Shown here in pieces: positions 5,671 through 28,658 of a stretch of 64,000 nt of DNA. Position 1 is the stretch's first letter. Each line of letters begins with the position of its first letter. The DNA comes from Microbotryum violaceum (taxonomy: Eukaryota): the NCBI GenBank assembly GCA_001244265.2, contig CDLV01000005.1, positions 1 through 64,000 of the forward strand. Reading direction: 5' to 3'. The position numbers were made by a program, and so were the translations under genes. Under the pieces are notes generated by a model, which saw only the letters and a program-made list of their open reading frames with translations, was not told where the DNA came from and did not search any database.

Positions 5671-6700
5671 CTAAGGCCTGTCGACAAGGGCTGCCAAATC
5701 AGAAATCAATCCATTGTGAGAAAGCTTACCCTGCTCCCACGGAGCTTTTACTTCAGCTTCTTCTTCCTCCCTCATGAGGCGAACCGCGGATAATCCAGCC
5801 CGCAAAAGCGCATGACGATTCCGAGTAGGTCAAAAACGCCAGTCCAATAAGATATGTAGGGTTGAAGCGTCTTTTGTAGGCTGTAGTGGCTTCGGAACAG
5901 CGCCTTCTTGCTTTCGGCGGGGAAGCTTCCCGGGTCCTCCCAGCCGGACCAAATGATTTTGGTGGTGGGTATCATGGCCTTTGGGCCATTGGGACCCTCG
6001 GGTCGACTGAATATGAGGTAGAGAATCACGTAGGCGAGCGACTCGATGTCGTGCCAGGGCTGATGGGGAAGAAGGGGTCCCACACCGCCAAGGGCTGGGA
6101 ATCTTTGGCGAGCTAGGAAGGCAAAAGTCCCCTACGGAGACGAGACAGCCCGGGCTCGTCAGCTCATACAGCACACTCGAAGTCTTTACGTTCGGCTCCC
6201 AGCGAAGCCGAACCTACGGCTCGGCGGTATCGCTCGGCGGGGGCGGGACCGTCATCCTTGATGTAGATGGCCAGGTCGTAATCGATGAGCACACCCTGTC
6301 CATCTGGAGCGACCAGAATGTTCCCGGCCGAGACGTCACGATGCAGGATGTGCATCCGGTAGAGATTACGCAGACTTGAGGACGACACAGGAGCCCGTGA
6401 GGTCATGGCGCCGACACGTCCCAATCATGGCCAAGTCCTGACACTCACCTTTGGCTACACCCAGGATGACTCGAGCAAGGGAGACGGTCGAATCGATGAC
6501 CCAGATGGGATCAAAGCATTGCTCATGAAAGCCGACTTCCATCGCCCTTGGCGTGAATCGGAACCCACGCGGCAGGCCACCGCCGCATCCGAGAAACTTG
6601 GGCACAACGGTGAACTCGCTCTCGCGGTACACATCGACAATGTTGGTCAACCCTTCGCGCTCTTCGGGTGAAGCTGTAGCGATGGGACCCCTGATCTCGT
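5671..6700 (-). pseudogene. FunK1-type fungal protein kinase, C-terminal half, frameshifted (copy F1)
   Basis: Exons encode ILGVAKG / LHRDVSAGNILV..LIDYDLA / GTFAFLA..HQPWHDIESLAYV; frameshift near 5780 before the C-terminal ..LSHNGLISDL motif; N-terminus missing. Confidence 0.85.
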
Positions 6701-6919
6701 CGGCTGAATCAGAGTACTCGGGTCACGCGGGCGACGGCTAATTCGGTGGTCTCGGGGATCGGGCTGGAGTCGCCAAGTCGGGAAGTGCAGATTCGGCTAA
6801 CTCGGCCTAGCGCCACATGAGCGGATAAAAGTTCAGGACGAAGTATGGCGTGATCGGAGGGCCGAGTGTCGGAAAAGAGGAGGAAGCTGGCCTGGAGGGA
6901 TTGGAGTGTTTTGGCGTCG

Positions 6920-7176
6920 GAGGGGAGTTTGCTTCTTGTTTTTAGGCAGACCACTTCTAGGATACAATACAGCATCTTAGCTGGTTCTCACTTTCTTTGT
7001 GTTTCAAGTCTCGTCTCTCGTCTCCAGTCTCCAGTCTGCGTGTTTCGTTCTCAAACTCGGTCTCGTTTCTCGGTTTGAGCCCCTCTCTTGTCTCTATCGT
7101 CTTCGGCCTCGATTCCATCGTTTTCCCTTATCGTTCCATATCATCTTTGATCGACCGCTTTGCTATACCATAATAC
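6920..7176. repeat. Dispersed repeat copy 2 (~260 bp)
   Basis: Diverged direct copy of 5151-5436. Confidence 0.9.
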
Positions 7177-8389
7177 GGTCGTGTTCATCGCTTCGAGGCT
7201 CCGCTACGAAAGAAACCGTCATGGCGTCATGGCATATTCCTGGGTAGACGTGGACGCTTCCTTCTCGCCACCGCCTCGGGTCGCCCTGACCTCTGGAACC
7301 TGCCGAGTTGCGCGCTTTCCAGGAAAAACATGTTTGTGGCCTCTATTGGCGGCCCACGCGCGTTTCGCTCACTGTTAGACTCGCTCGCCCCGCCGTATCC
7401 GCGCACGGACGGGGCATTACACGCGCTACAGTGCGCTCATGCGCGCGCAACCTACTCAAAGCCGATCAAAGATCAAATTTGAGCCTGTAGCAAGTTTGGC
7501 CCATGGACTGAACTTGAAGTCTTTCCAAGTCCGTCAGATCGATACACTGACCCGAGTGTGGTAGGGACATTAGCTTCGGCAGTCTGTATGTATTACAATA
7601 TCTAAAGAGCGTGTTCGCGTTCTTAGATTTGCTGGCCAACGGTACCGCCGTCATTGCACAGCCTAGGCTGGCTGCAGTGCCAGCCGGGCCGGCTTCTGTT
7701 CACTCGACTCGTACTCCTCCTCTACTGCTCATACTCCATGATGTTGACTCTTGTGACAGCTCGCAAGATACACAAGGTTGGCTTGTGTATGCTCTTAGTC
7801 CCTTTGCCGCGGCCTGGCAAGCCTTTCATGGGGGTTTTCGAAGTGCCCCTCTCACAAGTAGCCATCCTCACGGAAGCCGAGCACCTCCTCCACCAAACCG
7901 CCGCCAGGAAGTCAGGGCATTTGCAACACCACCATCTTTAAGACTGGCGAAGATGTCCAATAAGTATCAAATGCACTTTTCCGGTATATGCCAAAGACTT
8001 AGTATGAGTGAGTCTCGATCGAGGCCTCTCCTTACTGACGCCGACTCGGAGTCGAACTCGGAGTGAGTTTTCGACTCAAGGCGCTTGATCATGCTCTTGT
8101 ACACGAAACGAAACCCTTATCAAAACTGGCGAGTGGAATAATTCAGCATAGTGTATCCATCTCCCGCTATCGTGTAGGCTCCAATTGCAAAGTTCGGATG
8201 CATGATCGAGCGCTTTCTCCGAATCAGATGGCTCGGCGGTTCGACTCCCTGGACCGCTCGCGCGACGTGTAGCGGTAAAATGAGTCAAGTTGCAGCGGAA
8301 TGAGGGACAACTAGCGGTGTAGTTGTATTGCTGTTGATGACTCGAAAGATGAAGAATTTGTCACCGAGGGAGGGCTGCGGAGAGTGACG

Positions 8390-8779
8390 GGCTCACTCGA
8401 ACATAGTCTTCTCAAGCAGCGGACGTCCAACGACCTACTAGGTTATGGAGCGCGCAGCAAGCGTCGTCGGCAAATTGGAGTTCTCGAATCGTTTGTAGGC
8501 CCGGGCTCACAACGCCCTTGACCTTCAGTCGAATCTGATAGTCAGCACCCTCGATCGCGAGCACGAAGAGAGACGGAGCCAGAGGATCGCCTTGCCGAAC
8601 ACCCGATAGGACGTCGAAAGCGGCCGAGAGCCAACCGTTGAGGAAGATCGAGGCAGATTAGTTGATGTACGTCGCTCGGGACCATTGGCGGGCTTTGAGA
8701 CCGAGGCCAACGGCGCAGAGGACTACATCAAGGTACGTGAGGGAAAGACGATTGCAAGCCTTCTCAAAGTCCATCACCT
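8390..8779 (-). mobile_element. Degenerate LINE reverse transcriptase fragment
   Basis: Minus-strand translation VMDFEKACNRL...IFLNGWLSAAFDVLSGVRQGDPLAPSLFVLAIE...LQFADD, with an internal stop. Confidence 0.85.
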
Positions 8780-10385
8780 CTAGCAGACCGAACACGGGCC
8801 GTAAGCCCGGAAGTCCGGACCCGTACCCATGTCGGGGGATGGGGGGGGAGAGGAGAAGAAAAAAAAAAAAAAAAAAAAAGAAAAGGAAGGGGAAAAAAAG
8901 AGGGGGGGAGAAAAAATAAAAAATAAAAAAAAGGAGAGGGAGAGGGAAAGAAAAAGAAGGAAAAGGGGGAAAGGAGAAGAGGGAGGGGAAGAGAAAGAAG
9001 GAGAAGAAGAAGAGGGAGGGGGAGGTGAAACAGGAGGAAGAGAGGAAGTGGTACGGAACAAGTCATTTTGACAATATACATCATATTACAGGTATTATGA
9101 AGCTACAAAGTTGTGACATTTCTTTTGATGCCGAGCTCGGCCATTCATCTCAGCCCTTGTCAGTCCTCTACAGAACCTTCGTGATTGTGGGTCGTTCGGA
9201 TCCATCTCGTCTGTCAGCCCGAAAGGCTTTCCGCAGTCCAAGCACGCCCCTTCACACCCAGTCACCGATCCGTCATCGCTTAGTTTTGACCCCTTGAGTC
9301 GACAAGTAGTTTGACCACAGAATCGACAGTGCCTTGCCCCTTTTGTGGTACCCGCGCGCGTCAAAGCGCTGCTCGTGCCCAAGTCCGCGCTCGAACCAGC
9401 GTCGCTCGAGGCAGTTGCAACAAAGGGGCGGATGGATGACGTTGGCGGATCTGAGGCATCGACTGCTATCTCCGTAAGCCTCCCCAAGACTGGCGGTTTG
9501 TGACCAAGTAATGGCTTAGCCACTAGCATGCTAACATCACGACCACGGGAGGGTCGGTAAGCAAAGCTTGAATCACTCTGACGTCGTTCCCACCCATGTT
9601 CATTGTGGCTTGAGCATTTGCCAGCGACGACCATCTCGATGCCCATGTATTAATGTGCTCTGGCATCTGTGTGAGAATTGCGCTTCAGCTCAACATCACC
9701 ATTCAGTGTGACACAGATGCGACATACGTTGTAAAAGATGTCTACTCCGTTGGCATACTTGTTCCAAAGCTCGGTAATCTCCAATATCCGAAGATTTTGA
9801 GGAGCTCCCAGTCGTATCTTGCTTGAGAGATATCTGTATAGCGCTCGTTCGCTGGGTGTATGGACATGTAATACAGCAAATCGAGTACCCTGACGTTCCG
9901 CTAGCCAGTCGTGGCGAAGCTTGCGATCGGTTAGCAGCCGGCTTTGCATATGCTGTATCGCCGACGTATTGTTTTGCAGCAAGTTCCGTGGCGACCACTT
10001 GACGGGCTCCAAACGCAGAGTCCCGCGCTCGACGTGATAGGGCTCGATCAAAAAGCGCATTTGCGCTGTTGGCGACTGAACAGGTACGATGCCGAATGTT
10101 TCGGTGGATGGGGTGTAGAGCAGCGGGTTGACTATATCTGACACAGTGGTTGAGTGCCGTGGGAGAAATGCCGAGGTCTTGCGCCTTAGACAATGTAATT
10201 CCACAGTGAGCCAGAGGTCGTAGTGCCCCACGAATGGTTTTCCGGTACGATTGAACGTCCCAACCTGCGAATACAAGGGATAGTGGGTGAGAAAGGTTGC
10301 CGCTTCTTCGAATCGCGATGGTGAAGTTGGACTGACCGTGAGATTGTGCACTAGCACGTAGTCAGCCAAGCACGCATTGGCATGG
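8780..10385 (-). mobile_element. 3' part of a transposon-like element: intron-containing ORF with Cys-rich C-terminus, pyrimidine-rich tail and Helitron-like hairpin plus CTAG end
   Basis: HNLT/VGTFNRTGKPFVGHYDLWL...QGTRFAVLHVHT...WNKYANGVDIFYN/MPEHI...CRFCGQTTC..CEGACLDCG; stop at 9095; hairpin 8795-8809 lies 11 nt from CTAG at 8780-8783. Confidence 0.7.
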
Positions 10386-12942
10386 ACCACGATGGAGCGT
10401 GTCACTCAACTTCTTCGCGCGTTCAAGCCGAGGCTGGGACGACCGCCTACGATTGCGTCGCCCGGCTGGGAGGATTGAAATGGGACTCACCCGCGTCACC
10501 TGGCGCCAGGGTTCTCGGCTCTTTCTTCGATATACTCGAGCAACACCCCTCATTGCTGGACCTGTTCCGCGAGAAGGTGGACGCCATCAGCAATGCTCCT
10601 TACAGCGAGATGCCTCGGATGAGCGAGCACGAAGTCGAAATGTCGTTCCTTCGCCTGTTATTTGGCGGTCTAGATTCTGCAACGGCGGCGCTGCTTAACC
10701 ATTATGCCGCGATCACCGAGGCCGTCGGAACTTCTTCCGCTTCCGCATCGACCCGCTATTCGGTTCAAATGCGCGAACCTCAACGTGCTCTCCGCACGCA
10801 GGGCGATGCTGTCGTCTACATTCAACGCGGGGCTGGCAACGTCGTTTCAAGTATCTCGATCGAATACAAGCGGGACGACGTACATCACAGCTTGGCCAAG
10901 GTACGCCAGGAGGTCGCCCTCTCGCATATTCCCGCACTCGACCACGGGTCCCCAGTGCCACTTCAGAAACTAGAGGAAGAAGAGTCGAAGGGTGCAGATG
11001 CTGTGGCGACCAAGGTGAGGCATGCATTCTTGCAGGCTTGGACATACGCTTTCTCGATTCGGCCTCGAATATCTGCGTTTACTCATTTCATATTTTTCAT
11101 GCTCGTGAAGGCCATCATCCAATGCGTCTCTAGCGAGAGTCGATTCTTTTTGCTGCTGTCGGTTCCGTTCTTCCAAATTGGTGAACTGGGTACGTCGTAG
11201 ATTTGAACTCACCGAAACCTGTCGAAACTTTCCGGGCCCCACTGACGCATGCGATCATGCGGTCTTGCTTTGGCCATTCGCCCGCCCACAGTCCAGCACC
11301 AGTCGACGCATGCTGCAACGGCAAGCGATCCCGTAGCGTCGACCTCAGCGGCGTCTGCCTCAATCTCGGCTGCGACCGCGTACTCACCGGCACCGCCCCT
11401 CAAGGCCAGGTACAGCCTGGTTCTACAAGAACTGGCCCGATGGGTAGAGCCCTCTCCGACGACCATGAACCCAGACGCGGCCGAAACACTTGGCGCTGAT
11501 CTTCCACGACGGTCACTCATCGTGTCGTTTATCGCCCTGGCTTTCACAGCCGTTATCGAAGTCCCTAAGCCGGACCAAGCCGTCATTGATACACTGCTCA
11601 ATCCTCAATTTCAACCTCCGAATCTGCCTCGTCGTCGCTCCGATCCGGACTTGGACCCTAACTATGAACCCTCCCCGCGGGTCCAAAAAGCCTCGAAGAC
11701 TTCGATCGAAGCCACCGGTGCTCGTCGTTCGGGGCGACTGGTAGGCCAACCACCGCGAGCTCAAACCAAGGACTCGAATCGACCGGTCACCCCGCCCATC
11801 TCCGTAGGGTTGCAAAGTGATCCCTCATTTGATCCGTTGACGCCTGTGACTCGCATCTTCTCGTCCCCTCCTGCATCGACGGATTGGAGTCCTGCGACCT
11901 CGCCGCTCTCCGGCTCGGGCCTCCCGTCGAAATCGGTCACCATAATTCAAGATCGTGGGTTCGTGATCAAGGCCAGCTTGTCGAGCGCGTACTGGTCTAC
12001 GATGGTGCGTCACGCGCTCTACCATGCTGCTCCCGTCCTAGCCCTTGTAGCCCAGCTCACAGAAAGTATTGTTTACTTCCTGCTCTTGTGCAGTCGTACA
12101 CGGGCACAAGCCGCGTGGAATTGGTCGAGATCGGGTTTGATATCGTCTCTTCGGTTCCTTCCGACTCGCCCCTTGCGTCCCGTCTGCCGTCAAAGCCTTC
12201 CCCAGCGAGCGATTTTATTCGGGGCCTCCATCTGTCCGATGTGGTTTTGCGGTGGCTGTCCGAAAACCCCGGGAAGAGCTCAAGGACGATCGAATCCCCC
12301 TCGAACACTTGGATCGGTTCGAGCCCACTGCGGATCTTCTTCTGGAGAAGGAGGTCGGGTCGGGAAGTACTGCCGGAGGGTGGCTTGCGAAGGTGGTGAA
12401 AGTCAACCGACCTTTGTGCTCATCGGTCAAAGCCGAGGCACCCCTTGTTGATCACCCTGCTCCGAACACGACGTACTTTCTCAAGCTCGTGACGTGTAGA
12501 TACGTCGGCTCCGTCATCCGCGAGACGCTGTTTTACCAGCACGTCTTGCCCCACCTCCCCGAGCATCTTCGAAAACATATCCCGCAGTATCACGGCACAT
12601 ATCGAAGGACGAATGGCAACGGATACGCCATGGTGCTTGAGAATGTGGACAAAACGATGAACGAGCTCGACTTCTACGGGTCGCCGGGCGAATTGTGGTA
12701 AGTTCCTGCAGGGCGGCGCACTGATCCAGCCATGTGCAAGCCGGTCAAGAGGCCGCGCGGATTCCTGACCCTCTGATTCTTTTTCTTTTTTCCACGGGAG
12801 GTGCAGGGAGATCGAGGCGGCTTTCAGGGAACTCGGCATCATCCACAATGATGTCAGGGCCGGCAACATACTGGTTCGACCCAACAATGGCCCTCTTTGC
12901 TTCGTTGATTGGGGACGATCGTATCTCAAACTCCGAGTATGA
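10386..12942 (+). pseudogene. REase-like plus atypical kinase gene, copy K1 (5' end clipped; -1 frameshift near 12270)
   Basis: Near-identical to 22956-25512. Motifs QGDAVV..SIEYKR, GSGSTAG, YFLKLV..RETLFY, IHNDVRAGNIL..FVDWG; four GT-AG introns. Confidence 0.8.
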
Positions 12943-13084: not shown

Positions 13085-13315
13085 TGGCTGGATTCAGTGC
13101 GCCGCTCTTTAGGAACTTCCCACAACGGGGCGATCCGTAGAAGTCGCTGAGCTCATTCATCACTGCTCCCACATCCTCAAATACCATGACATATCCGTTG
13201 CCATTGGTCCTCGGTACGTGCCGTGATATTGCGGCAGATGTTTGCGAAGATGGTCGGGAAGGTGGGGGAAGACGTGCTGGTAGAACAGCGTCTCGCGCGC
13301 AAATGACCGGGCCAA
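13085..13315 (-). pseudogene. Inverted, diverged fragment of the K-family kinase
   Basis: Encodes RETLFYQHVFPHLPDHLRKHLPQYHGTY and TNGNGYVMVFEDVGAVMNELSDFYGSP, plus part of the following intron; homologous to about 12510-12733. Confidence 0.85.
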
Positions 13316-15826
13316 CGTCAGTGCTAGGCTCGGCTTCACGTTCGCGCGTGCCAACACCCCTGTCCCTCTCCCCACTCACTTTTCACTCGCACCACCTGAC
13401 AAGACTCGGCACTGATCGCACCACGCCGCAACTCGACCTCACACGCTGTCACATCGTTCCATCATCGTCTTTGGCACGATAAGCCTTACACCTCCACCTG
13501 AGAGGGCGTGATCACTTTCAGCAGCGTGCTAGCTTGCGTCGATGCATCGCTCGAGCGTTCTCGGTCGGACACGTGCTCGGTCACCGCACCGCCTCGATCG
13601 CCCACTCGCTACTCGACCGATCAGTGTAGTAAGTACTTCGCTCAGAACTACTCAGTTCGCGCCCCATTCGCTCACCTCATGTTTGTCGTTGCTGCGCATC
13701 ACTCTAGTTCAGATTGCGCGTTGGCCGACGCGCTGGCATCCGAGCTTGGCACCAAACCGCTCTGTGACTTGTACGACCATACTCTGCGCATCCCTCATCA
13801 GCACCATCGAAGAGATGCTCAGCTTTCCTGAGGTCTCGAATTGATGCACACATCACTCAATCCTCGTCGCTCCACCCCGAACACCACTGTCGACCTGTGA
13901 CGATCTCCGCCACCCCCACATTGTTCACTCGCGTCGTCAACGTCAGGCCAATCACACGAATGCAGTCACTCGCCGTCACATCTCTTTCTTGGTTGAGTCG
14001 AAGAGTCTCATCGACGCGGCAAGCTTGGGGGTTGTCGGAACAGCTCTTGCTCGACTCGGCGAATATTTGACCGATGCCCATCCGCACTTCGACCGACCGA
14101 ACCGACAAACCTTTGAAGCTCGGTCTCCCCCTGCCCGTGCCCATCTCATCACCACGACGTGCGAAGTAACAATCTGCTCGCCCCTCGCGACGGCCACCTC
14201 GACCGCCTCGACCATCAACCTTCCACCGCACTCGTGCTCGATCGCCATGGACTCACTGTCATCAACTGACCTGACCTACTCATCATGAGCGCCGACCCCA
14301 CAATCGCCCCCTTCTCGAATCCTTGACCTCACCTCGTCTTGATTTGTGTCGCCGCACCCAGCTCGACACTTCCCCGTGATCTTTGCATCCCCACCGGCGC
14401 ATTAGCTCGATCAACCAGGTCCCCAATCTGGTATGCTCTCCTCTCCAGCCCAGTCATCCTCTCCGCAAGTCCCGTCAATACTGAAACTACTGCAAACGCT
14501 CATCTGTCTTCCACAGCATTGCCCGACATCCCTAGCGAGCAAGATCGAACTCGCAGGTCACCCATCGTCAGCTTCCCACCGATTTGCTCCATCATCGCTC
14601 ACACCCGATTCCACGAGCTTCTGATTCGATCCTGCCATCACGAATACGACTTCTCCCGACCCGAAGTCCGTCATTTCCTTGCGATCAGCTTGACTGTTCT
14701 GCGCCGTTTTCGGCTGGCTCGGCACTCGAGCCACTTCATCGAGCAGCGTCGTCTCGACTCGGACCGTTCGGCACTCCGACGATCGATGATCAGCTGGACC
14801 CGTCCATCTCCCAGCCAACTTGCTTCGGCCATACTCGATGAACGATCAAGCCCCAACTGACATGTGTCCGCCTCGATGTGCCCACCTTGCCCAAATCACC
14901 ACTCCAACTCGTCCGGTCAACTCGAGCTTCAACTCGACGATACTTATAACGTCGACGATCCTATCTCTCTGACACCGTGTTTGAACGCGACCCGATACGC
15001 CAGTCGATACATTTCAATTCGACCGATTCGACTCCGACCGCGTGGCGCTAACCGCTGACATGATCGATATGAAAATTGTGATGGTGCTGTCCGTGGACGG
15101 TGTTGGAACATGATGTAGGAGGGCATGGGTACACGGAAGAGACGGTTTGTGATGTAATGCACGTGAACCCCAACATGAATTGTCACATCATCGTGTGAAC
15201 CCCAACGCGCATTGTCGCATGATCATGTGAAGCACAACTTCCATGATCGCTGACCGTCACCATCTCCGGGTGAGCGCTCGAACACGTGATCGTGTGGGCG
15301 GTTTATTGCTCCGCCAGCCCGAATACCGCTCCGATGATGGATATATGATGTGTCACGATGAACCGCATTCGATTATTTTCCATTTCGGAGATCGCGAGCG
15401 CTCTCAGTGGCCGAAGGCAGCAGGGGCCGCCGTTCTCTCAAATACCAGATGGCGCTCGCCCAAATCGCCCAAGCATCTTTGTAAGGATTTGCGCTCGACA
15501 GCGCGCGCAGAGCTGGCGGGCAGCTGGCCGGGGGATTTGGATTTGGATTTGAAAACTGCCCATATAAACAGGTTGAAAAACACTACTGAAGCTTCGGTGC
15601 TCTTGTCTGGTCTATGCAGGCTTGCTTTCGTTATAGCCGGGCCGCCGTAATCCCACCAAAGCTCGCCCCACTCCTGTCGTCGATTGCATCAGGTTCGCCA
15701 GGATGATGTTGATTGGTATGCGCGAAATTTAGGAGTTTGATCACAACGCGCAGTACGGAGTCTAGTATTGCATTCACATTCGTCCATAAAGGTTGCACAA
15801 CAGGAACGCAGATATCGAGCATGGTT

Positions 15827-18243
15827 CTACTTGCAAAGGGCATTGAAAGCCGCCTGGACATGTTCATACGACATCTGACCCGAGTTCCAAAGCGACGCAA
15901 GTTCTGGCTCTGTATTGATGGGTCTCACCCTGGCGAAAGACCAATCCAGCGAGCAATTTTGCTGCAGGACACTCAGAACCTTCTCCACGCCACACCAACG
16001 AAATGCGCATGCGTTCAGGAGCTCCTCGAAGCCGGGTTCCGTAGACAGCAAGAGTTTCCTGTTTGCTGCATCTTTGAGCTTCTTGGCATTCCACGCGTTC
16101 CAGATATCCGCGGCGTCCGGCTTCTCGAAAAGTCGCGCGTCGGCAGATTCAGATTCAGGTTGGAAAGCCGTACGGCACGCCACATAAAAGAATGATTCTA
16201 CATCATGCCAGCGCTCGTGCACCACACCCTCGGTTGCGGGGCTGAGCAGGAGTCGAGAGATGTAGGGTAGCGTGCCCTGTGGTTGATCATTGTACAGGGG
16301 AAGGATGGAAGGGGTTAGGTGAGACCAAGAACGTGTGAAGGGCTAGCAAGGACACGAGAAGAACGTACCGAGCGGCTGAGGCGACTCTCTTCTTCCGCCG
16401 TTCGGGCCTTCTTCACCGCCAGATTGTAATCAATCAACACTCCATCGCCTTTACGGTCCACCATGACGTTGCCATAGGACACGTCCCGGTGGATGAAGCC
16501 GTAATTCCAAAGCTGGCGATGCCCTGTCACGCAAGGCAAAGGGTCGTCAGTGTTGGCACACCCTTCAGCGCGCTGTCCCGCTCTGCTCTGAGCACTCACC
16601 CTCAATCGCACCCTCGAGAGCGCGCGCGAGCTGCTTCGCGTTTTCGAGTGTGGCGAGTGGGTAATAACGTTCTTCGTGAACGACGACCTCCCTGGCCCGT
16701 GGGTGCAACCGGCGAGGGATTCGTTGCCGGGTAGGAACATGGGGAGGGTCCTGTACCCGGTGCAAAAGACGCCGACCAGTGGAGCGAGCCCTCGAGGTCT
16801 CTTTTCTTGGATGAGTTTGCGGATCTCGGCCAAGTCCGAGTTGCGCGACTCCTCGACCCAGATGATCGTCATTGCGAAGGTCCTGATGTTGGCGCCTTCA
16901 GCAAGTTTGACCTCGTATGTCGACGTTGCGCGGCCGCACTCTCTTTGTCGACGAAAGATGAGCTCCTTGATCTTGACGTTGGACATTGTCGTTGCTCCCC
17001 GCTGAACTCGGAGGCCGCCGGCGGGAAGAAGTCGGGGCAGAGCGTGAACGGGCCGTAGCGGTCGTCGAGCGAGGTTGTGGTCGCTAGAATGCCGTTAAGC
17101 CGATCGCTGTGTTGGACGAGACGGTACAAGAACGTCGACAGCTCTCCATTCTCTTCGGTGACTGTTCTAGATTTGGTAGAGAACACCCCGCAAGCAGACA
17201 TCACGTAGACCTTGAGACGTTCGCCGCGAAGGGTGAACCCGATCGCATGTTCGCGAATCGGCGTTGCGAGGAGTGCCGACAACCGTCGGAACAACTGGCG
17301 CTCGGCGTTGGAGGTGCCGGCTTTGGTCTCGCCGACGGCGGCCACTTGCGTAAAGGAGCGTTTGGCCTGGTTCAGGTCCACCTTGTCCTTGTCCTTGACC
17401 TTGGCCGTGTTCGTGCTGTCTTCTTCTGCGTTGTTGTCCTCGTCGTGAGGCTGGCCCTTGCCGTTTTCGTTCGCGTTGGAGTTCACGTTGGTGTCGGGGC
17501 CCGCATCGGCGTCGAGTTTCTTGGCTTGCGGATCGGCGTGACTGGGAAGGGCCCATACATTCGGGAGGGTTGGGTCGTGCGCGACCGCAGCGTGGGTCAA
17601 GAGCACGACGTCGGCCGTCTTCTCGGTCGTCTCCACACGGTCAGGTGCGACGCTGATGTACTGGGCGAGTTCTGGCAGGCGACCAGTCGCCGGTCTCCAG
17701 TCTAGAGGTCCAACAGTAAGATAAACGGCAGTGGGAAGGCGAGTCAGCTCTCGAAGGAACATACACCCTCGATGTCAAGCGATCCAGGCGTCGACTCACC
17801 GTGTTGATGACACCTGCTATGACCTCGCCCAGCGCTTCTTCGGTGCCCATCTTGAACTCCTTGGGCCAGATCTTGTTAGCGAGCTCCTCAGCGGTCGGAT
17901 GGCCGAAGAAGTAGGCCTCGAGGGCCGCACAATGTTTTTGGTCCATCTGGACCGCTTCGGAGATCCTCTCGGCTCTGTCGGATGCTCGCTCGTGCGAGGC
18001 CGCCTCCCGGCGCGATCGTAATGGGGTCGATTGAGTCGACGATACCAAGGGAGAGACCGCGTCCCTCAGTTCGGCGAGGTCGTACGCGTTGGCGGTTGCG
18101 CTTGAGGTCGGGGCCGAGTTTGCAGCCGCTGAAATCGAGGTCGAGGGCGAGGGCGAGGTCGAGGCAAGAGCCTGAGCGGGCGAGTCGACGGCGTGTGCCA
18201 CGGGCTTCGCGTTCCTTTCAGCGATGCGCGCGCTCCTGCGCAT
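15827..18243 (-). CDS. FunK1-type kinase with N-terminal REase-like domain (copy F2); three apparent -1 frameshifts in C/G runs
   Basis: TADVVLLT..VGETKAG..ERQLFRRL; CGRATSTYEV; IHRDVSYGNVMV..LIDYNLA; GTLPYIS..HERWHDVESFFY. The start codon is inferred. Confidence 0.75.
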
Positions 18244-18971
18244 TGGCCCTGTCGACGCGCCGGCGCTCGGGCGCGCGAGGTTCGTGTGGCGCGGGCGGTC
18301 ACTGACTCGTATGACTGACGCCACTGGCCCACGCCCCAATTGGGGCCGTTGCAGTGACCGCCCGCGCCGACACGAACCTCGCGCGCCCGAGCGCCGGCGC
18401 GTCGACAGGGCCAATGCGCAGGAGCGCGCGCATCGCTGAAAGGAACGCGAAGCCCGTGGCACACGCCGTCGACTCGCCCGCTCAGGCTCTTGCCTCGACC
18501 TCGACCTCGCCCTCGCCCTCGCCCTCGCCCTCGCCCTCGACCTCAATTTCAGCGGCTGCAAACTCGGCCCCGGCCTCAAGCGCAACCGCCAACGCGTACG
18601 ACCTCGCCGAACTGAGGGACGCGGTCTCTCCCTTGGTATCGTCGACTCAATCGACCCCATTACGATCGCGCCGGGAGGCGGCCTCGCACGAGCGAGCATC
18701 CGACAGAGCCGAGAGGATCTCCGAAGCGGTCCAGATGGACCAAAAACATTGTGCGGCCCTCGAGAGGGCGAGGTCGAGGTCGAGGCAAGAGCCTGAGCGG
18801 GCGAGTCGACGGCGTGTGCCACGGGCTTCGCGTTCCTTTCAGCGATGCGTGCGCTCCTGCGCATTGGCCCTGTCGACGCGCCGGCGCTCGGGCGCGCGAG
18901 GTTCGTGTCGGCGCGGGCGGTCACTGCAACGGCCCCAATTGGGGCGTGGGCCAGTGGCGTCAGTCATACGA
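17917..18971. repeat. Inverted triplication of the 5' end of kinase gene F2
   Basis: 18306-18765 is an inverted copy flanked by two same-orientation copies (17917-18304 and 18765-18971). Confidence 0.9.
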
Positions 18972-19067
18972 ATCAAAACAAGGCCAAGCTCGGTCTATTA
19001 TGGGCCAACTCACTGTGGCCAACTTACTGTGAAGGCCCTGGGCGTGATGGGTTACGGGGCAGTGGGG

Positions 19068-19219: not shown

Positions 19220-19856
19220 CAAAATGATTTCGCAACTCCCAACTTTGGACTCCGCCCGCCTCCTCCCAACTTGGAACTCCGCTCGCCTCCGCGCGCCTCC
19301 TCGTGGAACAACGGTCTTTTCTGAAGTGTTTGTCGGATTTTTACACCCTCTTTTCCAAAGATGTCGGCTTTTGCACATGCGCCTCAATATCTCACCAAAA
19401 GTTGCTCTGCATGCTCCAAAACTTGCTCAAAAGTCGTCGAAAACGCGTTCCGTTTGCGGGCGCGCGCGGCGCGGCCGATCGAACATAGCGAAAAACCCCC
19501 GGGATGGGGCGGATTGACTATGAAAGTGGCTTGCCGCATCTTGCCGCGCGCGTCGCTTCAACTGTCTTTGGCTGGTCTCCCAGCCTCTTGAAAAGCTTCA
19601 GCCTTCCTTGCATATTCGGTGATGGGCTCGTGACTCGCTTGTCAGACTTGGATTTTGCTGATTTTGGGCGCATTGTATCCGCGGTGTCGTTCTTGCGGCT
19701 TGTAGAGGCTCTACCGGCGGCATCCCGCGGGTCGGGCACGCTCCGAAGGACGTCAAATCGTGGCTCGGCATGTGCGCTCGTGGTGATAATGCGCTCGTCG
19801 GAAGCGAGATCCGCGGTTGAACGACACAAAGTCGCTGCGGTTGAACGATACGCAGT

Positions 19857-21612
19857 CGTCGTTCGGGCGACTGGTAGGCCAACCACCGCGAGCTCAAACC
19901 AAGGACTCGAATCGACCAGTCACCCCGCCCATCTCCGTAGGGTTGCAAAGTGATCCCTCATTTGATCCGTTGACGCCTGTGACTCGCATCTTCTCGTCCC
20001 CTCCTGCATCGACGGATTGGAGTCCTGCGACCTCGCCGCTCTCCGGCTCGGGCCTCCCGTCGAAATCGATCACCATAGTTCAAGATCGTGGGTTCGTGAT
20101 CAAGGCCAGCTTGTCGAGCGCGTACTGGTCTACGATGGTGCGTCACGCGCTCTACCATGCTGCTCCCGTCCTAGCCCTTGTAGCCCAGCTCACAGAAAGG
20201 ATTGTTTACTTCCTGCTCTTGTGCAGTCGTACACGGGCACAAGCCGCGTGGAATTGGTCGAGATCGGGTTTGATATCGTCTCTTCGGTTCCTTCCGACTC
20301 GCCCCTTGCGTCCCGTCTGCCGTCAAAGCCTTCCCCAGCGAGCGATTTTATTCGGGGCCTCCATCTGTCCGATGTGGTTTTGCGGTGGCTGTCCGAAAAC
20401 CCCCGGGAAGAGCTCAAGGACGATCGAATCCCCCTCGAACACTTGGATCGGTTCGAGCCCACTGCGGATCTTCTTCTGGAGAAGGAGGTCGGGTCGGGAA
20501 GTACTGCCGGAGGGTGGCTTGCGAAGGTGGTGCAAGTCAACCGACCTTTGTGCTCATCGGTCAAAGCCGAGGCACCCCTTGTTGATCACCCTGCTCCGAA
20601 CACGACGTACTTTCTCAAGCTCGTGACGTGTAGATACGTCGGCTCCGTCATCCGCGAGACGCTGTTTTACCAGCACGTCTTGCCTCACCTCCCCGAGCAT
20701 CTTCGAAAACATGTCCCGCAATACCACGGCACATATCGAAGGACGAATGGCAACGGATACGCCATGGTGCTTGAGAATGTGGGCAAAACGATGAACGAGC
20801 TCGACTTCTACGGATCGCCGGGCGAATTGTGGTAAGTTCCTGCAGGGCGGCGCACTGATCCAGCCATGTGCAAGCCGGTCAAGAGGCCGCGCGGATTCCT
20901 GACCCTCTGATTCTTTTTCTTTTTTCCACGGGAGGTGCAGGGAGATCGAGGCGGCTTTCAGGGAACTCGGCATCATTTACAATGATGTCAAGGCCGGCAA
21001 CATACTGGTTCGACCCAACAATGGCCCTCTTTGCTTCGTTGATTGGGGACGATCGTATCTCAAACTCCGAGTGTGAATCTTTTCTCTCCTTCTCCTTCTG
21101 AGGTCTCTGTTTTTCTCTCTCTTCTATGCTTGTTTTATATTTTGTACGCACTTTCCCTCAGGTTCATCTGCAATGCGCAACGCTCGTCATCTCGTTCATC
21201 TCGTCAGCGTCGTAGTTGGACTCGAGAGCACCCCGAGCTGAATGGACCTCAGCTCCTACCGGTTCGGCGAGAATCGTGCTTCTGGACGGAGGTTGAGGCT
21301 GGAAGGAGAGAGAGAGCAAAGGAGGAAATGATGGAATTAACCCCCCCTTCCAAGAAACAAGTTCACTCAGTCTTGAGTTAGGTAGTGGCCCCAGAGCCAG
21401 AGGCACGATGTCGCCTGATCCGCGGTGAGAATTTATGTTGTCGAGTTTCGTCGGCCCTCTCAACGACCGCACCACCCAGTGCAGCTCGCCCTAACCCGGG
21501 CTTGAACGAACATCCACGTCACCGAGCACTCGCCTCGAATCACTGCATACACGCAACATTGGGTGGAAAACTATTTCGACGACTACAACTTTGCGGCACT
21601 CGCCGAGGAAGA
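19857..21612 (+). pseudogene. 5'-truncated K-family copy K2 (kinase half, stop at 21076) plus 3' flank
   Basis: Corresponds to about 24290-26071; kinase exon in frame (ENPREELK); catalytic loop IYNDVKAGNIL. Confidence 0.85.
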
Positions 21613-22510: not shown

Positions 22511-22843
22511 GTATGGAGATCGCCGCACTGCAGGTGGGACACTTGTTTGTGTTGAACAAAAGTGTGGGGAGAAGAGGTTTGTTGTCGTGGAAAGAAAAAA
22601 AAACTGGAATGTCGAGCGAGCAACAGGCGATGTTGCGAGCGAGAATAGTTGGTTCTAGTAAGAGGGAGTGATTCACACCGCACTCGCCTCCCGAATCGCT
22701 CGGCGCGCCCGTTGGTCGCCTTTGGCAACCGGCCATGGAGAATGGAGAAAAAAATCGGGGCGGTACCTGGCCGCGACCGCCGGGGCCCTCTTCACTTCCC
22801 GCGGTCCACTTGGGGCCTGATCACCTCCAGCATCTCGCTCTGT

Positions 22844-25512
22844 ATGGCTTCTTCCAACGAAACGACGCCAATTGTTTCCTCCAACTCTCGGCCACCAATG
22901 CTCACCCGACTCCTTGCTACTTGTGCTCCATCCAGCTGGTTTCTCCCGCCACCGCACCACGATGGAGTGTGTCACTCAACTGCCACGCGCGTTCAAGCCG
23001 AGGCTGGGACGACCGCCTACGATTGCGTCGCCCGGCTGGGAGGATTGAAATGGGACTCACCCGCGTCACCTGGCGCCAGGGTTCTCGGCTCTTTCTTCGA
23101 TATACTCGAGCAACACCCCTCATTGCTGGACCTGTTCCGCGAGAAGGTGGACGCCATCAGCAATGCTCCTTACAGCGAGATGCCTCGGATGAGCGAGCAC
23201 GAAGTCGAAATGTCGTTCCTTCGCCTGTTATTTGGCGGTCTAGATTCTGCAACGGCGGCGCTGCTTAACCATTATGCCGCGATCACCGAGGCCGTCGGAA
23301 CTTCTTCCGCTTCCGCATCGACCCGCTATTCGGTTCAAATGCGCGAACCTCAACGTGCTCTCCGCACGCAGGGCGATGCTGTCGTCTACATTCAACGCGG
23401 GGCTGGCAACGTCGTTTCAAGTATCTCGATCGAATACAAGCGGGACGACGTACATCACAGCTTGGCCAAGGTACGCCAGGAGGTCGCCCTCTCGCATATT
23501 CCCGCACTCGACCACGGGTCCCCAGTGCCACTTCAGAAACTAGAGGAAGAAGAGTCGAAGGGTGCAGATGCTGTGGCGACCAAGGTGAGGCATGCATTCT
23601 TGCAGGCTTGGACATACGCTTTCTCGATTCGGCCTCGAATATCTGCGTTTACTCATTTCATATTTTTCATGCTCGTGAAGGCCATCATCCAATGCGTCTC
23701 TAGCGAGAGTCGATTCTTTTTGCTGCTGTCGGTTCCGTTCTTCCAAATTGGTGAACTGGGTACGTCGTAGATTTGAACTCACCGAAACCTGTCGAAACTT
23801 TCCGGGCCCCACTGACGCATGCGATCATGCGGTCTTGCTTTGGCCATTCGCCCGCCCACAGTCCAGCACCAGTCGACGCATGCTGCAACGGCAAGCGATC
23901 CCGTAGCGTCGACCTCAGCGGCGTCTGCCTCAATCTCGGCTGCGACCGCGTACTCACCGGCACCGCCCCTCAAGGCCAGGTACAGCCTGGTTCTACAAGA
24001 ACTGGCCCGATGGGTAGAGCCCTCTCCGACGACCATGAACCCAGACGCGGCCGAAACACTTGGCGCTGATTTTCCACGACGGTCACTCATCGTGTCGTTT
24101 ATCGCCCTGGCTTTCACAGCCGTTATCGAAGTCCCTAAGCCGGACCAAGCCGTCATTGATACACTGCTCAATCCTCAATTTCAACCTCCGAATCTGCCTC
24201 GTCGTCGCTCCGATCCGGACTTGGACCCTAACTATGAACCCTCCCCGCGGGTCCAAAAAGCCTCGAAGACTTCGATCGAAGCCACCGGTGCTCGTCGTTC
24301 GGGGCGACTGGTAGGCCAACCACCGCGAGCTCAAACCAAGGACTCGAATCGACCGGTCACCCCGCCCATCTCCGTAGGGTTGCAAAGTGATCCCTCATTT
24401 GATCCGTTGACGCCTGTGACTCGCATCTTCTCGTCCCCTCCTGCATCGACGGATTGGAGTCCTGCGACCTCGCCGCTCTCCGGCTCGGGCCTCCCGTCGA
24501 AATCGGTCACCATAATTCAAGATCGTGGGTTCGTGATCAAGGCCAGCTTGTCGAGCGCGTACTGGTCTACGATGGTGCGTCACGCGCTCTACCATGCTGC
24601 TCCCGTCCTAGCCCTTGTAGCCCAGCTCACAGAAAGTATTGTTTACTTCCTGCTCTTGTGCAGTCGTACACGGGCACAAGCCGCGTGGAATTGGTCGAGA
24701 TCGGGTTTGATATCGTCTCTTCGGTTCCTTCCGACTCGCCCCTTGCGTCCCGTCTGCCGTCAAAGCCTTCCCCAGCGAGCGATTTTATTCGGGGCCTCCA
24801 TCTGTCCGATGTGGTTTTGCGGTGGCTGTCCGAAAACCCCCGGAAGAGCTCAAGGACGATCGAATCCCCCTCGAACTCTTGGATCGGTTCGAGCCCACTG
24901 CGGATCTTCTTCTGGAGAAGGAGGTCGGGTCGGGAAGTACTGCCGGAGGGTGGCTTGCGAAGGTGGTGCAAGTCAACCGACCTTTGTGCTCATCGGTCAA
25001 AGCCGAGGCACCCCTTGTTGATCACCCTGCTCCGAACACGACGTACTTTCTCAAGCTCGTGACGTGTAGATACGTCGGCTCCGTCATCCGCGAGACGCTG
25101 TTTTACCAGCACGTCTTGCCTCACCTCCCCGAGCATCTTCGAAAACATGTCCCGCAATACCACGGCACATATCGAAGGACGAATGGCAACGGATACGCCA
25201 TGGTGCTTGAGAATGTGGGCAAAACGATGAACGAGCTCGACTTCTACGGATCGCCGGGCGAATTGTGGTAAGTTCCTGCAGGGCGGCGCACTGATCCAGC
25301 CATGTGCAAGCCGGTCAAGAGGCCGCGCGGATTCCTGACCCTCTGATTCTTTTTCTTTTTTCCACGGGAGGTGCAGGGAGGTCGAGGCGGCTTTCAAGGA
25401 ACTCGGCATCATGCACAATGATGTCAGGGCCGGCAACGTACTGGTTCGACCCAACAATGGCCCTCTTTGCTTCGTTGATTGGGGACGATCGTATCTCAAA
25501 CTCCCAGTGTGA
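22844..25512 (+). CDS. REase-like plus atypical kinase gene, full-length copy K3 (-1 frameshift near 24842)
   Basis: ATG at 22844; 5 exons; QGDAVVYI..SIEYKR, Ser/Pro-rich linker, GSGSTAG..FLKLV..RETLFY..MHNDVRAGNVL..FVDWG; stop at 25510-25512. Confidence 0.8.
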
Positions 25513-26287
25513 ATCTTTCCTCTCCTCCTCCTTCTGAGGTCTCTGTTTTTTCTCTCTTCTATGCTTGGTTTTTGATTTTGTAGGCACTTTCCCTCACGTT
25601 CATCTGCAATGCGCAACGCTCGTCATCTCGTTCGTCTCGTCAGCGTCGTAGTTGGACTCGAGAGCACCCCGAGCTGAATGGACCTCAGCTCCGACCGGTT
25701 CGGCGAGAATCGTGCTTCTGGACTGAGGTTGAGGCTGGAAGAAGAGAGAGAGAACAAAGGAGAAAATGAAAGGTCTGCATGGAATGAACCCCCACCCCCC
25801 CCCCCCCCCCCCCCCCCCCCAAGAGACAAGTTCACTCAGTCTTAAGTTAGGTAGTGGCCCCAGAGCCAGAGGCACGATGTCGCCTGATCCGCGGTGAGAA
25901 TTTATGTTGTCGAGTTTCGTCGGCCCTCCACCACCCAGTGCAGCTCGCCCTAACCCGGGCTTGAACGTACATCCACGTCACCGAGCACTCGCCTCGAACC
26001 ACTGCATACACGCAACATTAGGTGGAAAACTATTTCGACTTTTTCAATTTTGCGGCACTCGCCGAGGAAGATGGCAATTCCTATCCTCTCGGGTCGATCA
26101 TACTCGTGTTCATCCGCCCCATCGTCTGTCCGATTCCAGTGGAGGCTGGTCACTCCCGGTGGCAAGTCTTGAATACGAGCAGGGAGTGGGAGGAGGGTGA
26201 GGGAGAACAGGATTTGAAGCGACTTTCACTTCGTTGCGAAAGGTCGTTGCGGAAGGTCGAGACTGGTCGAGACCTCAACTACCTGTC

Positions 26288-28658
26288 ATGAGAAAACGGA
26301 ATCGCTCCAACGCCAGTCCAACGCCGCGCCCCCGCCCAAGCGCAATCCGAGTCAATGCGCCGCGTCTCGTCTTCACTTGCGCCCCCACCCCCGCCACCAC
26401 CCAATCGCTGCCGACACACCTGCCCAGCTCGTCGGCTCCCACCCCGGTGACGCCGACGCCCAGGCGGATCAACCACAACACGACTCGACCAGGGCGAGCA
26501 GGTCGCTCACGCGAGGCCGTAGGCCTGTCAGGCATGTCGGACCTCGACGATGCCTTGCCAAAGTCGAGCCCAATGAAGTCGAGTCCTGTCGTGTCGATGA
26601 CGGTCACGGGGGCAGAGAGGGAGCAACAGCTCTTCGCCCACATGGGCAAACCTCGACTCTCGAAGGCGATGGACAAGTACTTTTCTGCTACGCCTTCGAA
26701 GTACGAGGCCAAGATACTCGAACCGAGGAAGAAATTGTGGACGGACTCGGAGGCTGCGATGAGAGAGATCGCAAACGCGATCAAAGATGTGGTGAGTGCC
26801 CGGTGCTATCGCTTGGCTTCGACCGCACGAGTATGACTGACCACTGTCTCCCGATCATTGATGCACCCGGGTGTAGACTGGTGATGGACGTCTGGTCGGA
26901 TGCGGCAACTCGGGTAGCCTCATCAAGCTGGCGCCCGATCGCGGGAACAGGAGAAGACGCCCGACGCCGTCATATTGACGCATGCGGCGGTGGCCGCTTC
27001 CCCCGATCTTCCGTTCGTTTGGGCGCAGTCAGAGCACCCAACATCGAAGGAAGGCACGCCCCCGTTGCCTCAACGCGCATACTCGCAGATTGCAGTGGCG
27101 ATTGAGGTGAAAAAGACCGACACGAAGAGCGCAGAAGCGCGTAATCAAGTGCTTAGGCGGCTACACATGATCTGCACGACCGCACTCCGCGCCCACGCGA
27201 TCGGGGTCACCCTTTGCGGGGAAGTACTTCAAGTCTACCTCGTCAACGAGTGTGAGGTATTCACGACGAGCGCCCGCAAGTGCGGTCAGGAAGCCGTGCT
27301 GCTCCGGCGCGTGCTGTCACACCTCATCGAACTCGACGACAACGGGCTCGGGATGCTGGCCTCGACGAACGAGGTCGACGATGGTTTCGGCAATTTTATC
27401 GTCTCGGACAAGTTTCTCCCACCCCGCGCCCACGACTTCGAGTCCGGGCTTGGCGATATCTCAGATCTCGAGATCCAGGAGCTCCTCTTCCGACGCCGAA
27501 GCTGCTTGGGTCGCGCAACTTCCGCTTTTCGCGTCACCGCAAGACACGCGCCTGTCGACCCGACGTCAATCACCTCGCTTAACCCTGCCGCCGAGTACGC
27601 TATGACAGTCGCATGGGTCGAGCAATCCCGCCTCGACGATGCGATTGCCCTACGTCGCAAGATGCACGCTGCGTCGCGTATCGACACCGAGGGTTTAAGC
27701 CTTAGCGCCGGCATCTATCGGGACGACTTCCGCACGTTTCCAGCTTTCTTCGGTGATGATGAAAGCTTCGATGATATCGGGCCCCGGGCACTCGAGGTGG
27801 TCTTCCACCGACAGTGTTATCGGCCCCTCAACACGGCGACCACGACCAGGAAACTTGCCCAGGCCGTACTTGGAGTCGTCAAAGGTGAGCACGGGAATCA
27901 ACTGGGCGGCCTTGCGTTTGCGCTCCCTAGCCGACACGCCTATTCCCATGACAATGCAGGACACAGAAACCTCTACAGGCTGGGGTATATCCACCGGGAT
28001 ATCTCGTACGGTAACGCCGTCATCGACCACGATGGTGTCGGCGCCCTCATCGATTATCACCTCGCCGTCCCGCATGATCGACCTTGCAACGAGCTGCACC
28101 ACAGAATACGATTCGTGCGTCCTCCCGTCTGTATGTTTCTCCGAATGAAGCTTCTGACCAGCACTAACCTTTGGACTATACGACGTCCGACAGGGCACCT
28201 GGCCCTACCTCGCCTGCTCGATCCTTACCCAGCCAGAACAGCCTCTCGGTGTCGTCCACGAACGGTGGCACGACATCGAGTCGCTCTTCTACGTTGTAAT
28301 GGAATCTTCGTTCCACGAGCCTTACCAGGGCGATGAGGAAGAGCTTGTCATGACGCCAAAGGGTCAGATTATCTGGGCGGCGCTGGAAGAGCCCAGATGC
28401 GGACCTAGTCTATGCCCTCAAGTTAACACTTTGCATGGACATGATCTACAAATCTTCACTCGACGGCTGCGCATATCGATTCCCAAGCATCAGCTAATCC
28501 TCAGCATCTTGAGACGCAATTGCGGCCTCGATAGCCGGTTCCTTGGTCTCGAGGTGGCGGAGGAAGAAGCCCAACTGGGGGAGTTGTGGGGTCCATCCAA
28601 GGCAATGTCGCACGAGTCCATCATCTCGGACATTGAGCAGCTGCTTCCCTTGCTCTGA
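26288..28658 (+). CDS. FunK1-type kinase with N-terminal REase-like domain (copy F3); apparent frameshifts
   Basis: TPDAVILT..AIEVKK..RNQVLRRL; CLGRATSAF; IHRDISYGNAV..LIDYHLA; GTWPYLA..HERWHDIESLFY. Intron positions match F2. Start is either 26288 or 26534. Confidence 0.78.

Follow-up and report, generated by a model that had tools for sequence, protein, structure and literature searches.

Candidate nuclease-plus-kinase genes of two lineage-expanded families form a rearranged cluster in Microbotryum violaceum

The first 64,000 nucleotides of contig CDLV01000005.1 of Microbotryum violaceum (assembly GCA_001244265.2), hereafter the window, contain a crowded group of related kinase genes, and the question raised by this locus is what such genes do and how they came to be multiplied. 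The first-pass annotation of the region described seven full or partial genes with a nuclease-plus-kinase architecture resembling that of the Spok drivers and the Crinkler effectors. Self-comparison and tblastn with the proteins of annotated relatives revealed a cluster of eight full or partial genes at 5.7–28.7 kb, one more than had been counted. The division into two distinct families, denoted F and K here, was correct: the F1, F2 and F3 pieces matched the Pfam family PF17667, and none of the five K pieces in the window matched any Pfam family. The explanation that we lean towards, with considerable reservation, is that of a birth-and-death cluster in which two intracellular protein families, both expanded in this lineage, combine a nuclease-type N-terminus with a C-terminal kinase and would act in genetic conflict. 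The Spok/Crinkler reading is an analogy and not a membership.

The motifs to which the first-pass annotation had drawn attention are present in the sequence as quoted: GDAVV..IEYKR in K1 and K3, TADVVLLT..GETK in F2 and TPDAVILT..IEVKK in F3. The best protein matches for both families were in M. saponariae, M. silenes-dioicae, M. lychnidis-dioicae and M. intermedium, and Microbotryum was the source of every match returned by the protein searches (19/19 with an F query and 14/14 with a K query). The K3 and F2 proteins are 97–99% identical to M. silenes-dioicae entries, and the first two exons of F2 are 95–99% identical to the M. silenes-dioicae protein P0112. The F3 exon with the PD..ExK signature shares 92% identity with M. 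saponariae P0001, and the longest aligned stretch between F3 and P0001 (residues 1–475, partly gapped) shows 83% identity. K1 is not the plain truncation for which it could be taken: the ATG at 10382 yields the N-terminus MDHDGACHST, the same as in the annotated M. silenes-dioicae protein P0027, and K1 is a variant form with this P0027-type short N-terminus. In K2, the catalytic-loop His is changed to Tyr (IIYNDV).

Family F consists of FunK1 kinases (Pkinase_fungal, PF17667) and is thus an already described family and not a new nuclease–kinase fusion. Against a cut-off of 24.1 bits, the F3 reading frame scored 62.6, the F2 piece 51.4 and the F1 piece 33.5, and the full-length orthologues P0001 and P0003 scored 102 and 105 bits. 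PF17667 was the only Pfam family found on the full-length F proteins. FunK1 was described from Coprinopsis, where the excerpted text reports lineage-specific expansions in non-syntenic regions and a function that is not known (PMC3203195). The F proteins have a ~230-residue N-terminal domain followed by a complete kinase domain, in which a G-loop-like GRATS, a strand AMT(V/I), HRDxSxxN and IDY(H/N)L can be recognized. In the alignment, HRD(I/V)S(Y/H/K)(G/D)N and (L)IDY(H/N)L were present, with the exception of P0004, which has HWD.

The N-terminal domain of the F proteins (about the first 200 residues) quite likely has a PD-(D/E)xK restriction-endonuclease (REase) fold with a complete E...D...ExK...Q set. 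It was aligned in 18 rows from two subfamilies that are ~40% identical to each other. The aligned proteins keep GTE(E/A) in a helix, T(P/A)D ahead of a hydrophobic strand, an E-x-K located 6–8 residues past a conserved (S/T)Q(I/V)A, and an invariant Gln in the helix that follows the E-x-K. D73 was found in 17/18 rows, the exception being a deletion at that place; the E-x-K was likewise present in 17 of the 18 when the rows were read ungapped, MAFFT having put a three-residue gap before it and not after it. Word-index searches for F relatives gave Microbotryum only (19 and 35 proteins), and therefore no deep FunK1 alignment. The PF17667 profile itself covers the ExK-helix-strand part, with its positions 13–113 matching F2 and 21–191 matching F3. 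Since the profile begins at the ExK strand, the N-terminal module appears to belong to FunK1 at large and not to this genus alone.

An AlphaFold model of P0001 residues 21–250 (predicted local distance difference test (pLDDT) 61.1, predicted template-modelling score (pTM) 0.66) comprises helix 30–44, short strands, strands 74–82 and 113–122, helix 129–144, strands 150–157, 160–167 and 170–173, and helix 184–195. The predicted core is α-β-β-β-α-β, with D73 at the start of strand 74–82 and E120-x-K122 at the end of strand 113–122, and the D, ExK and Q are placed as in PD-(D/E)xK nucleases. The model was compared with 48,161 representative PDB chains using VIA-align, and twelve chains had a Z of at least 5. 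The nuclease domain of BpuSI reached Z = 7.8 (root-mean-square deviation 4.0, 131 aligned), and other matches included Can2 (6.3 and 5.2), DrdV (6.2), VC1899 (6.0), EcoRI (5.6), TT1808 (5.5), Bse634I and Cfr10I (both 5.4), Hjc and SgrAI (both 5.2), HsdR of EcoR124I (4.8) and the V. vulnificus HsdR fragment 3h1t (4.7). REase-fold proteins made up about 25 of the best 50 rows; 14 of these were evident by title, and the rest were assigned from the known nature of the entries. As an informal control, a poor model of the K N-terminal domain was put through the same pipeline and gave no REase among 50 rows. A weakness of this comparison is that the list also contains DHH and Rossmann-like proteins, whose overall arrangement is alike. 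A phmmer search of PDB sequences with the F N-terminal domain returned only two chance-level matches (E = 0.9 and 1.7).

Family K, as far as its profile matches indicate, is an unnamed orphan family that is almost restricted to Microbotryum. The K profile had 77 matches among 1.84 billion proteins, and the 20 of these that were looked up comprised 17 from Microbotryum, one from Meredithblackwellia eburnea (P0088) and two from Clavulina sp. (P0095 and P0096, which have consecutive accessions and are encoded by adjacent genes on one contig). A full-length K protein of 762 residues, P0020, consists of a ~290-residue N-terminal domain, a Pro/Ser-rich linker, a conserved middle part and a kinase N-lobe. 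The N-lobe contains GSGSTAGG together with the Lys of FLKLV and the Glu of RETLFY, and is followed by HNDVRAGN, VDWG and the eight last residues. Full-length relatives have a borderline match to the Pfam family APH (PF01636) over the catalytic loop and DWG, which extends only over profile positions ~161–199 of 239: of four K proteins, two scored above the cut-off of 23.2 bits (23.8 and 25.1) and two below it (22.8 and 22.9). A profile of 15 K sequences matched the CK2-alpha segment GIMHRDVKPHNVLI...LIDWG in the PDB (E = 0.006). The pattern HxDxxxxN...D[W/F] lies within the last 90 residues in 27/28 full-length superfamily members, and the protein ends 2–25 residues past D(W/F)x in 26 of the 27 measured and 38 residues past it in the remaining one. 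As this end just after DWG is shared across the members, the truncated kinase is a trait of the family and not an annotation error. In one M. silenes-dioicae entry (P0024), the K gene model continues into a copia-type gag domain (Retrotran_gag_2, E = 0.043); P0024 is probably a K gene merged with a neighbouring retroelement in the model.

The N-terminal domains of the K subfamilies are related to each other (hhalign probabilities of 89.6% over 170 columns and 84.3%). The D...ExK triplet, however, is confined to the K subfamily proper: among its 12 rows that cover the site, the D is present in 11 and the ExK in nine, and in 19 K paralogues the place of the ExK is taken by FE(D/E)D or other residues. 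The AlphaFold model from 15 sequences (pLDDT 38.3) is too poor to judge the fold, and the VIA-align list obtained with it was mixed (top Z 5.1) and uninformative in this respect. What fits a REase is the order of the predicted elements (helix, three strands, helix, strands) together with the D...ExK motif. The domain may thus be described as a predicted α/β domain with D...ExK, for which a REase fold is a possibility suggested by the motif and this poor model. A lone D...ExK triplet carries little information, which conservation and its place in the predicted fold raise above chance. When the K and F N-terminal domains were compared with each other, hhalign gave a probability of 0.4%, which with such shallow alignments is no proof that they are unrelated. 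The proposed nuclease–kinase architecture thus stands in so far as both families have a D...ExK domain and a kinase, and the REase fold is moderately supported in F.

Read literally, the frame is broken in K1, K3, F2 (three times) and F3. All six breaks correspond to the loss of one base from a homopolymer that is three to five bases long. Contigs derived from the short reads of four public runs (X1, X2, X8 and X18) were aligned to positions 22800–28700 of the window, a range that includes two of the sites. The contigs that span position 24841 (X1, X8 and one of X2) have an extra G; those that stop at 24843, two from X2 and one from X18, run on like the G3 form. The contig over 24841 carries K2-type variants, and therefore represents a consensus into which the family has collapsed, which does not prove the longer run for K3 itself. 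At the F3 site, all short-read contigs that cover it have an extra G at 26942 or 26947/8. In the unique spacer at 25989–26511 (524 bp), comparison of the X1 and X2 contigs with the window shows one substitution, along with three one-base indels (at 26117, 26328 and 26381), two of which are also seen in X8. Because the breaks are confined to homopolymers and the short-read contigs have the longer runs at both sites checked, they are probably assembly errors. The assembly appears to under-call homopolymers, the six frame breaks are probably artefacts, and we read K1, K3, F2 and F3 as probably intact genes. The real fragments are F1, K2, K4 and F2'. That apparent pseudogenes may be homopolymer errors is relevant to annotators of this genome.

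The K copies are very similar to each other: K1 and K3 are 98.9% identical over 2700 bp, K1 and K2 98.7% over 1364 bp, and K2 and K3 98.0% over 1480 bp. F2 and F3, in contrast, are only ~33–42% identical, and F1 represents a third, more distant lineage. The amplification is therefore recent for the K genes, as had been claimed, but not for the F genes, which are old paralogues. There are no differences between K1 and K3 across the first ~1885 shared bases; farther along, variants of K2 are common to K3 first and then to K1, in blocks. This block-wise sharing of variants is the mark of gene conversion or recombination between copies. The repeat unit of K has the size of a gene, with its introns retained. 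In short-read data, other K copies diverge ~22 bp 5' of the K3 ATG, where contigs of three runs have loose ends (at 22822). At the other end, the match between K1 and K3 stops 142 bp past the stop codon, and that between K2 and K3 continues to ~560 bp past it. The 3' junction of K1, equivalent to position 25654, recurs as a loose end in short-read contigs. The copies arose by recent duplication, at the DNA level, of gene-sized units that retained their introns; subsequent gene conversion and rearrangement produced truncated pieces and inverted ones. The growth of the array is most simply explained by unequal recombination together with gene conversion.

Contig depth in one DNA run was ~1514–1661 over K, 837 over F3 and 282 over the unique spacer, a ratio that would correspond to roughly five or six near-identical K units and some three of the F3 type in the genome of that run, bearing in mind the warning given by the tool that contig depth is a rough guide and is not copy number. 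Exon 1 of F2 and its upstream region form a palindromic structure at 17917–18975 (inverted repeats I1–I3, 99% complementary), which represents a genuine inverted duplication or else an artefact of long-read assembly. The 3' side of K3 contains a run of ~28 C (25795–25825), compared with seven C in K2, and reads are apparently cut there (25782–25830).

Loose ends of X18 contigs run exactly from K exon 1 to exon 2 and from exon 4 to exon 5, and likewise cross two F introns exactly, and X18 cover is absent from the intergenic spacer between K3 and F3. X18 derives from another species, and that X18 and X8 are RNA is a guess, none of the runs being on record as RNA. If so, members of both families undergo transcription, and splicing as annotated, in a relative, which speaks for that relative and not for the window locus. 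Proximity of K and F genes recurs in two other Microbotryum species, at a minimum of three places, as judged by the numbering of the locus tags. On M. saponariae Chr6-3, g09022 (the F3 orthologue), g09026 (F2 type) and g09027/28 (F) are near g09032 (K); on Chr5-1 of the same species, g07573 (F2 type) adjoins g07574 (K); and in M. silenes-dioicae C055, g12646/7 (F) are near g12651 (K). The idea that K3 and F3 form a paired module gains from this linkage, which fits equally well with a shared preference for the same unstable regions.

How might such proteins work? The F proteins would have a PD-(D/E)xK fold in the first ~200 residues and a full kinase after it, and the K proteins an α/β N-terminal domain with D...ExK, a Pro/Ser-rich linker, a middle domain and a minimal kinase resembling APH and the eukaryotic-like kinases (ELKs) that ends past DWG. 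In a genetic conflict, the nuclease domain would be the effector and the kinase would regulate or neutralize it. The precedents are SPOK3, in which killing requires the PD-(D/E)XK domain and resistance requires the ELK-like kinase (excerpted text of PMC6660238), and the REase–kinase modules of Crinklers, in which the toxic role is ascribed to the nuclease and that of its regulator to the kinase (PMC5289972, in the excerpted text summarising Zhang et al. 2016). By this analogy, we think that a conflict role, with the nuclease as an effector under the control of the kinase, is most likely; toxin–antidote action, drive or allorecognition would be pure conjecture drawn from the same analogy.

Several observations weigh against this explanation. 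In the K proteins, the kinase that ends at DWG without the usual C-lobe helices may be inactive alone, the ExK is missing from three of the 12 K rows and from all 19 paralogues, and the substitutions between K3 and K1 (five synonymous and nine non-synonymous) give no sign of purifying selection. In the F proteins, all aligned rows have Thr at the place where the β3 Lys is expected (AMT, with the register read by eye), which means that they may be pseudokinases. The P0001 model is of middling confidence, with a pLDDT of ~48–50 in strand 74–82, and the top Z of 7.8 (under 8) is in the range that the tool calls common for unmatched models. Foldseek found no match to the F model in the PDB at E ≤ 0.001, so that the expectation of a nuclease fold at the F N-terminus drew moderate support from the REase list of VIA-align and none from Foldseek. 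Finally, the transcript evidence comes from relatives and not from the window locus.

Some of the same facts bear on a plainer explanation, in which these are ordinary signalling kinases that have expanded in a repeat-rich region, with N-termini that serve as non-catalytic scaffolds or substrate-binding modules of a nuclease-derived or nuclease-like kind. We regard this as unlikely, yet well within consideration. FunK1 has lineage-specific, non-syntenic expansions and no known nuclease role in the excerpted text of its description (PMC3203195), and the ExK of K is not kept in the paralogues. Inactive REase folds are common, and the CidB ND domains and the FASTKD4 RAP module that appear in the VIA-align list are presumably non-catalytic. 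However, the occurrence of the E...D...ExK...Q set in 17/18 F rows, from subfamilies that are ~40% identical, is unexpected for a dead site, and the absence in F of the β3 Lys of an active protein kinase (again read by eye) does not suit a signalling role. Delivery into the host plant as secreted, Crinkler-like effectors is much less plausible still, and we consider it very improbable. The organism is a biotrophic plant pathogen, and about one sixth of Crinkler C-termini consist of a REase plus kinase module, according to the excerpted text of PMC5289972. The absence of a signal peptide noted in the first-pass annotation was borne out, however: in a crude check made without a predictor, the longest hydrophobic run in residues 1–35 was three in all four N-termini. 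The Crinkler header motifs LFLAK and HVLV were found in 0/42 proteins by a crude pattern test, and Pfam gave PF17667 and no Crinkler family on the full-length F proteins. Membership in the Crinklers is thus not upheld.

A single-gene killer and antidote of the Spok type, acting in meiotic drive or spore killing, would have a nuclease that kills non-carriers and a kinase that protects, and drive would explain the turnover of copies. The domain order is indeed that of SPOK3 (a nuclease-type domain, a disordered linker and a C-terminal ELK-like kinase), and the genes are multi-copy and variable. The list for the F model also includes the V. vulnificus HsdR fragment 3h1t, to which the nuclease domain of SPOK3 has its best HHpred match (excerpted text of PMC6660238). 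For both N-terminal domains, the nearest Pfam-named cluster in the ESM Atlas was SPOK2_N, with scores of 0.88 (11% of members) and 0.75, which we treat as leads only; the feature matches were otherwise to unnamed fungal clusters. The Pfam scan, with E up to 1, gave no match to SPOK2_N (PF27653), but the Pfam copy may predate this model. There is no demonstrable sequence similarity to SPOK, and the conserved cluster C-x3-C-x13-C-x5-H-x7-H that lies upstream of the SPOK kinase (excerpted text of PMC6660238) was found, even with a relaxed pattern, in none of nine K, 19 paralogue and 14 F proteins (0/42), which argues against membership. Spok genes are typically few per genome, whereas there are two many-copy families here; Spok homologues are described from Ascomycota only in the excerpted text of PMC6660238, and our literature search for Spok in Basidiomycota found nothing relevant. 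We therefore hold such a system to be improbable at this locus. Similarly small is the chance that K and F travel together as cargo or machinery of an uncharacterised mobile DNA element, with the nuclease serving transposition. In keeping with this idea, the K unit is gene-sized with copies diverging close to the ATG on one side and 142–560 bp after the stop on the other, K and F are near each other at three loci in other species, and LINE and reverse-transcriptase fragments are nearby. Against it, inspection by eye of the borders of the K units showed neither terminal inverted repeats nor Helitron ends nor target duplications, the flanks of K1, K2 and K3 all differ, the genes keep 2–4 spliceosomal introns, and no transposase, Rep/helicase or integrase domain was found by Pfam in 4–30 kb (19 + 98 reading frames). 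The proposal that transposons had spread the array is accordingly unsupported. A birth-and-death cluster with a role in genetic conflict remains the explanation that we lean towards.

What is new here is the description of a nearly genus-specific family of predicted kinases truncated at DWG and, probably, the presence of an apparently intact REase-type domain in FunK1, as predicted from the model. Literature searches on FunK1 found no link between FunK1 and a nuclease among the papers listed; Zhang et al. 2016 may bear on this point. If the N-terminal part is an intact restriction-endonuclease domain, FunK1 joins the nuclease-plus-kinase conflict proteins, such as SPOK and the Crinkler modules. 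A more far-reaching version, to which we would give only a slim chance, is that FunK1 and K are the basidiomycete counterparts of SPOK-type killers and antidotes, in which the kinase restrains the nuclease and the turnover of copies reflects drive, haplo-lethality or allorecognition. If true, FunK1, a large family that has had no known function since its description, would gain a conflict role across fungi. Microbotryum has ordered tetrads and is a model for both non-Mendelian and mating-type-linked effects, and these tetrads make segregation tests practical. The nuclease-plus-kinase reading also offers a direct contrast, that between nuclease-dead and kinase-dead alleles.

The features of the cluster are listed in Table 1. 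To the right, the cluster is followed by a non-LTR (long terminal repeat) retrotransposon of the long interspersed nuclear element (LINE) type on the minus strand at 31.8–35.9 kb (31806–35934), with endonuclease/exonuclease/phosphatase, reverse-transcriptase (RVT_1) and zf-RVT domains in broken frames. Within it there is a 270-bp direct repeat (33220–33489 and 35664–35932, 96% identical). Beyond the LINE are ordinary genes: BIR, PI3/PI4-kinase, histidine phosphatase, HIRA, a diacylglycerol-kinase-like gene and a RING-variant/MARCH6-like ligase. The left flank contains an alcohol-dehydrogenase fragment. Given these housekeeping genes on the flanks, the cluster is an island between them with some retroelement debris, and the earlier label of a transposable-element mosaic is only partly apt. 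A short reverse-transcriptase fragment (...GVRQGDPLAPSLF...FADDA...) was spotted by eye in the list of open reading frames at 8412–8657 on the minus strand. An inverted pair of 353-bp repeats (727–1079 and 8911–9262, 98.3% identical, ~7.8 kb apart) encloses F1 along with a Lys/Glu-rich stretch of low complexity; the pair may represent two copies, or else the ends, of a mobile element. Self-blastn also showed, at 193–638, a tandem array of copies that are 89–94% identical and repeat every ~84 bp.

Table 1. Positions in the window of the F and K pieces, their signature motifs and the sites of frame breaks
Feature	Position	Strand	Description
F1	5775–6719	−	C-terminal fragment of a divergent FunK1 kinase, with HRD loop and WHDIES helix and without the N-terminal domain (tblastn)
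F1 Pfam match	6164–6424	−	PF17667, E = 2.6e-08
K1	10382–12942	+	K-family gene with short N-terminus; one frame break at run C4G3 near 12271
K4	13086–13375	−	Inverted K kinase-domain fragment joined to the 3' end of K1 (tblastn)
F2	15827–18243	−	Full-length FunK1 gene (PF17667); frame broken by three one-base homopolymer contractions
F2 nuclease-type signature	17322–17612	−	TADVVLLT (Asp) ... VGETK (Glu-x-Lys)
F2'	18414–18764	+	Inverted duplicate of F2 exon 1 (tblastn, P0112 residues 1–115, 97% identity)
K2	19856–21076	+	3' part of a K gene, from ~residue 424; frame intact at the C5G3 run
K3	22844–25512	+	Full-length K gene, five exons with GT..AG introns; one frame break, run C5G2 at 24841
K3 signature	23375–23440	+	GDAVVYIQRG...ISIEYK (Asp ... 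Glu-x-Lys)
K3 kinase catalytic loop	25414–25485	+	HNDVRAGN and VDWG (DFG equivalent); stop eight codons past VDWG
F3	26597–28658	+	Full-length FunK1 gene; one frame break, G4-to-G3 contraction near 26942
F3 nuclease-type signature	26963–27112	+	TPDAVILT (Asp) ... IEVKK (Glu-x-Lys)
F3 kinase catalytic loop	27992–28060	+	HRDISYGN and LIDYHLA (PF17667)
Frame-break sites	near 12271, 16700, 16998, 17663, 24841, 26942		Homopolymer contractions

Compared with known systems, the F genes are like FunK1 in matching its profile and in being multi-copy and lineage-expanded (excerpted text of PMC3203195). They differ in the divergence of the Microbotryum branch (F3 frame, 63 bits; full-length orthologues, 102–105), in the Thr at the expected β3 Lys, and in an N-terminal part that we read, from the model, as a PD-(D/E)xK fold. 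With the SPOK proteins of Podospora (Spok2/3/4), the cluster shares a predicted PD-(D/E)xK-type domain, a disordered linker and a C-terminal kinase resembling ELKs more than ePKs (eukaryotic protein kinases), as well as the occurrence as single intracellular polypeptides of variable copy number. The likeness is seen in K, where the C-terminal ELK-like kinase has a catalytic Asp (HNDVRAGN...VDWG, with the borderline APH and the CK2-alpha matches), whereas the kinase of F is of the FunK1/ePK type. The phylum is also a different one, and there are many more copies here, in two co-clustered families. Crinklers similarly have a REase-fold domain fused to a protein kinase, but the Microbotryum proteins have neither a signal peptide nor a ubiquitin-like or LFLAK-HVLV header, and are apparently intracellular in the fungus. 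Finally, K resembles APH/ELK kinases (PF01636) and CK2-alpha in its catalytic loop, HxDxxxxN followed by (I/V)DWG; by stopping so soon past the DWG, the K proteins dispense with the activation segment and the C-lobe helices of APH/CK2-type kinases.

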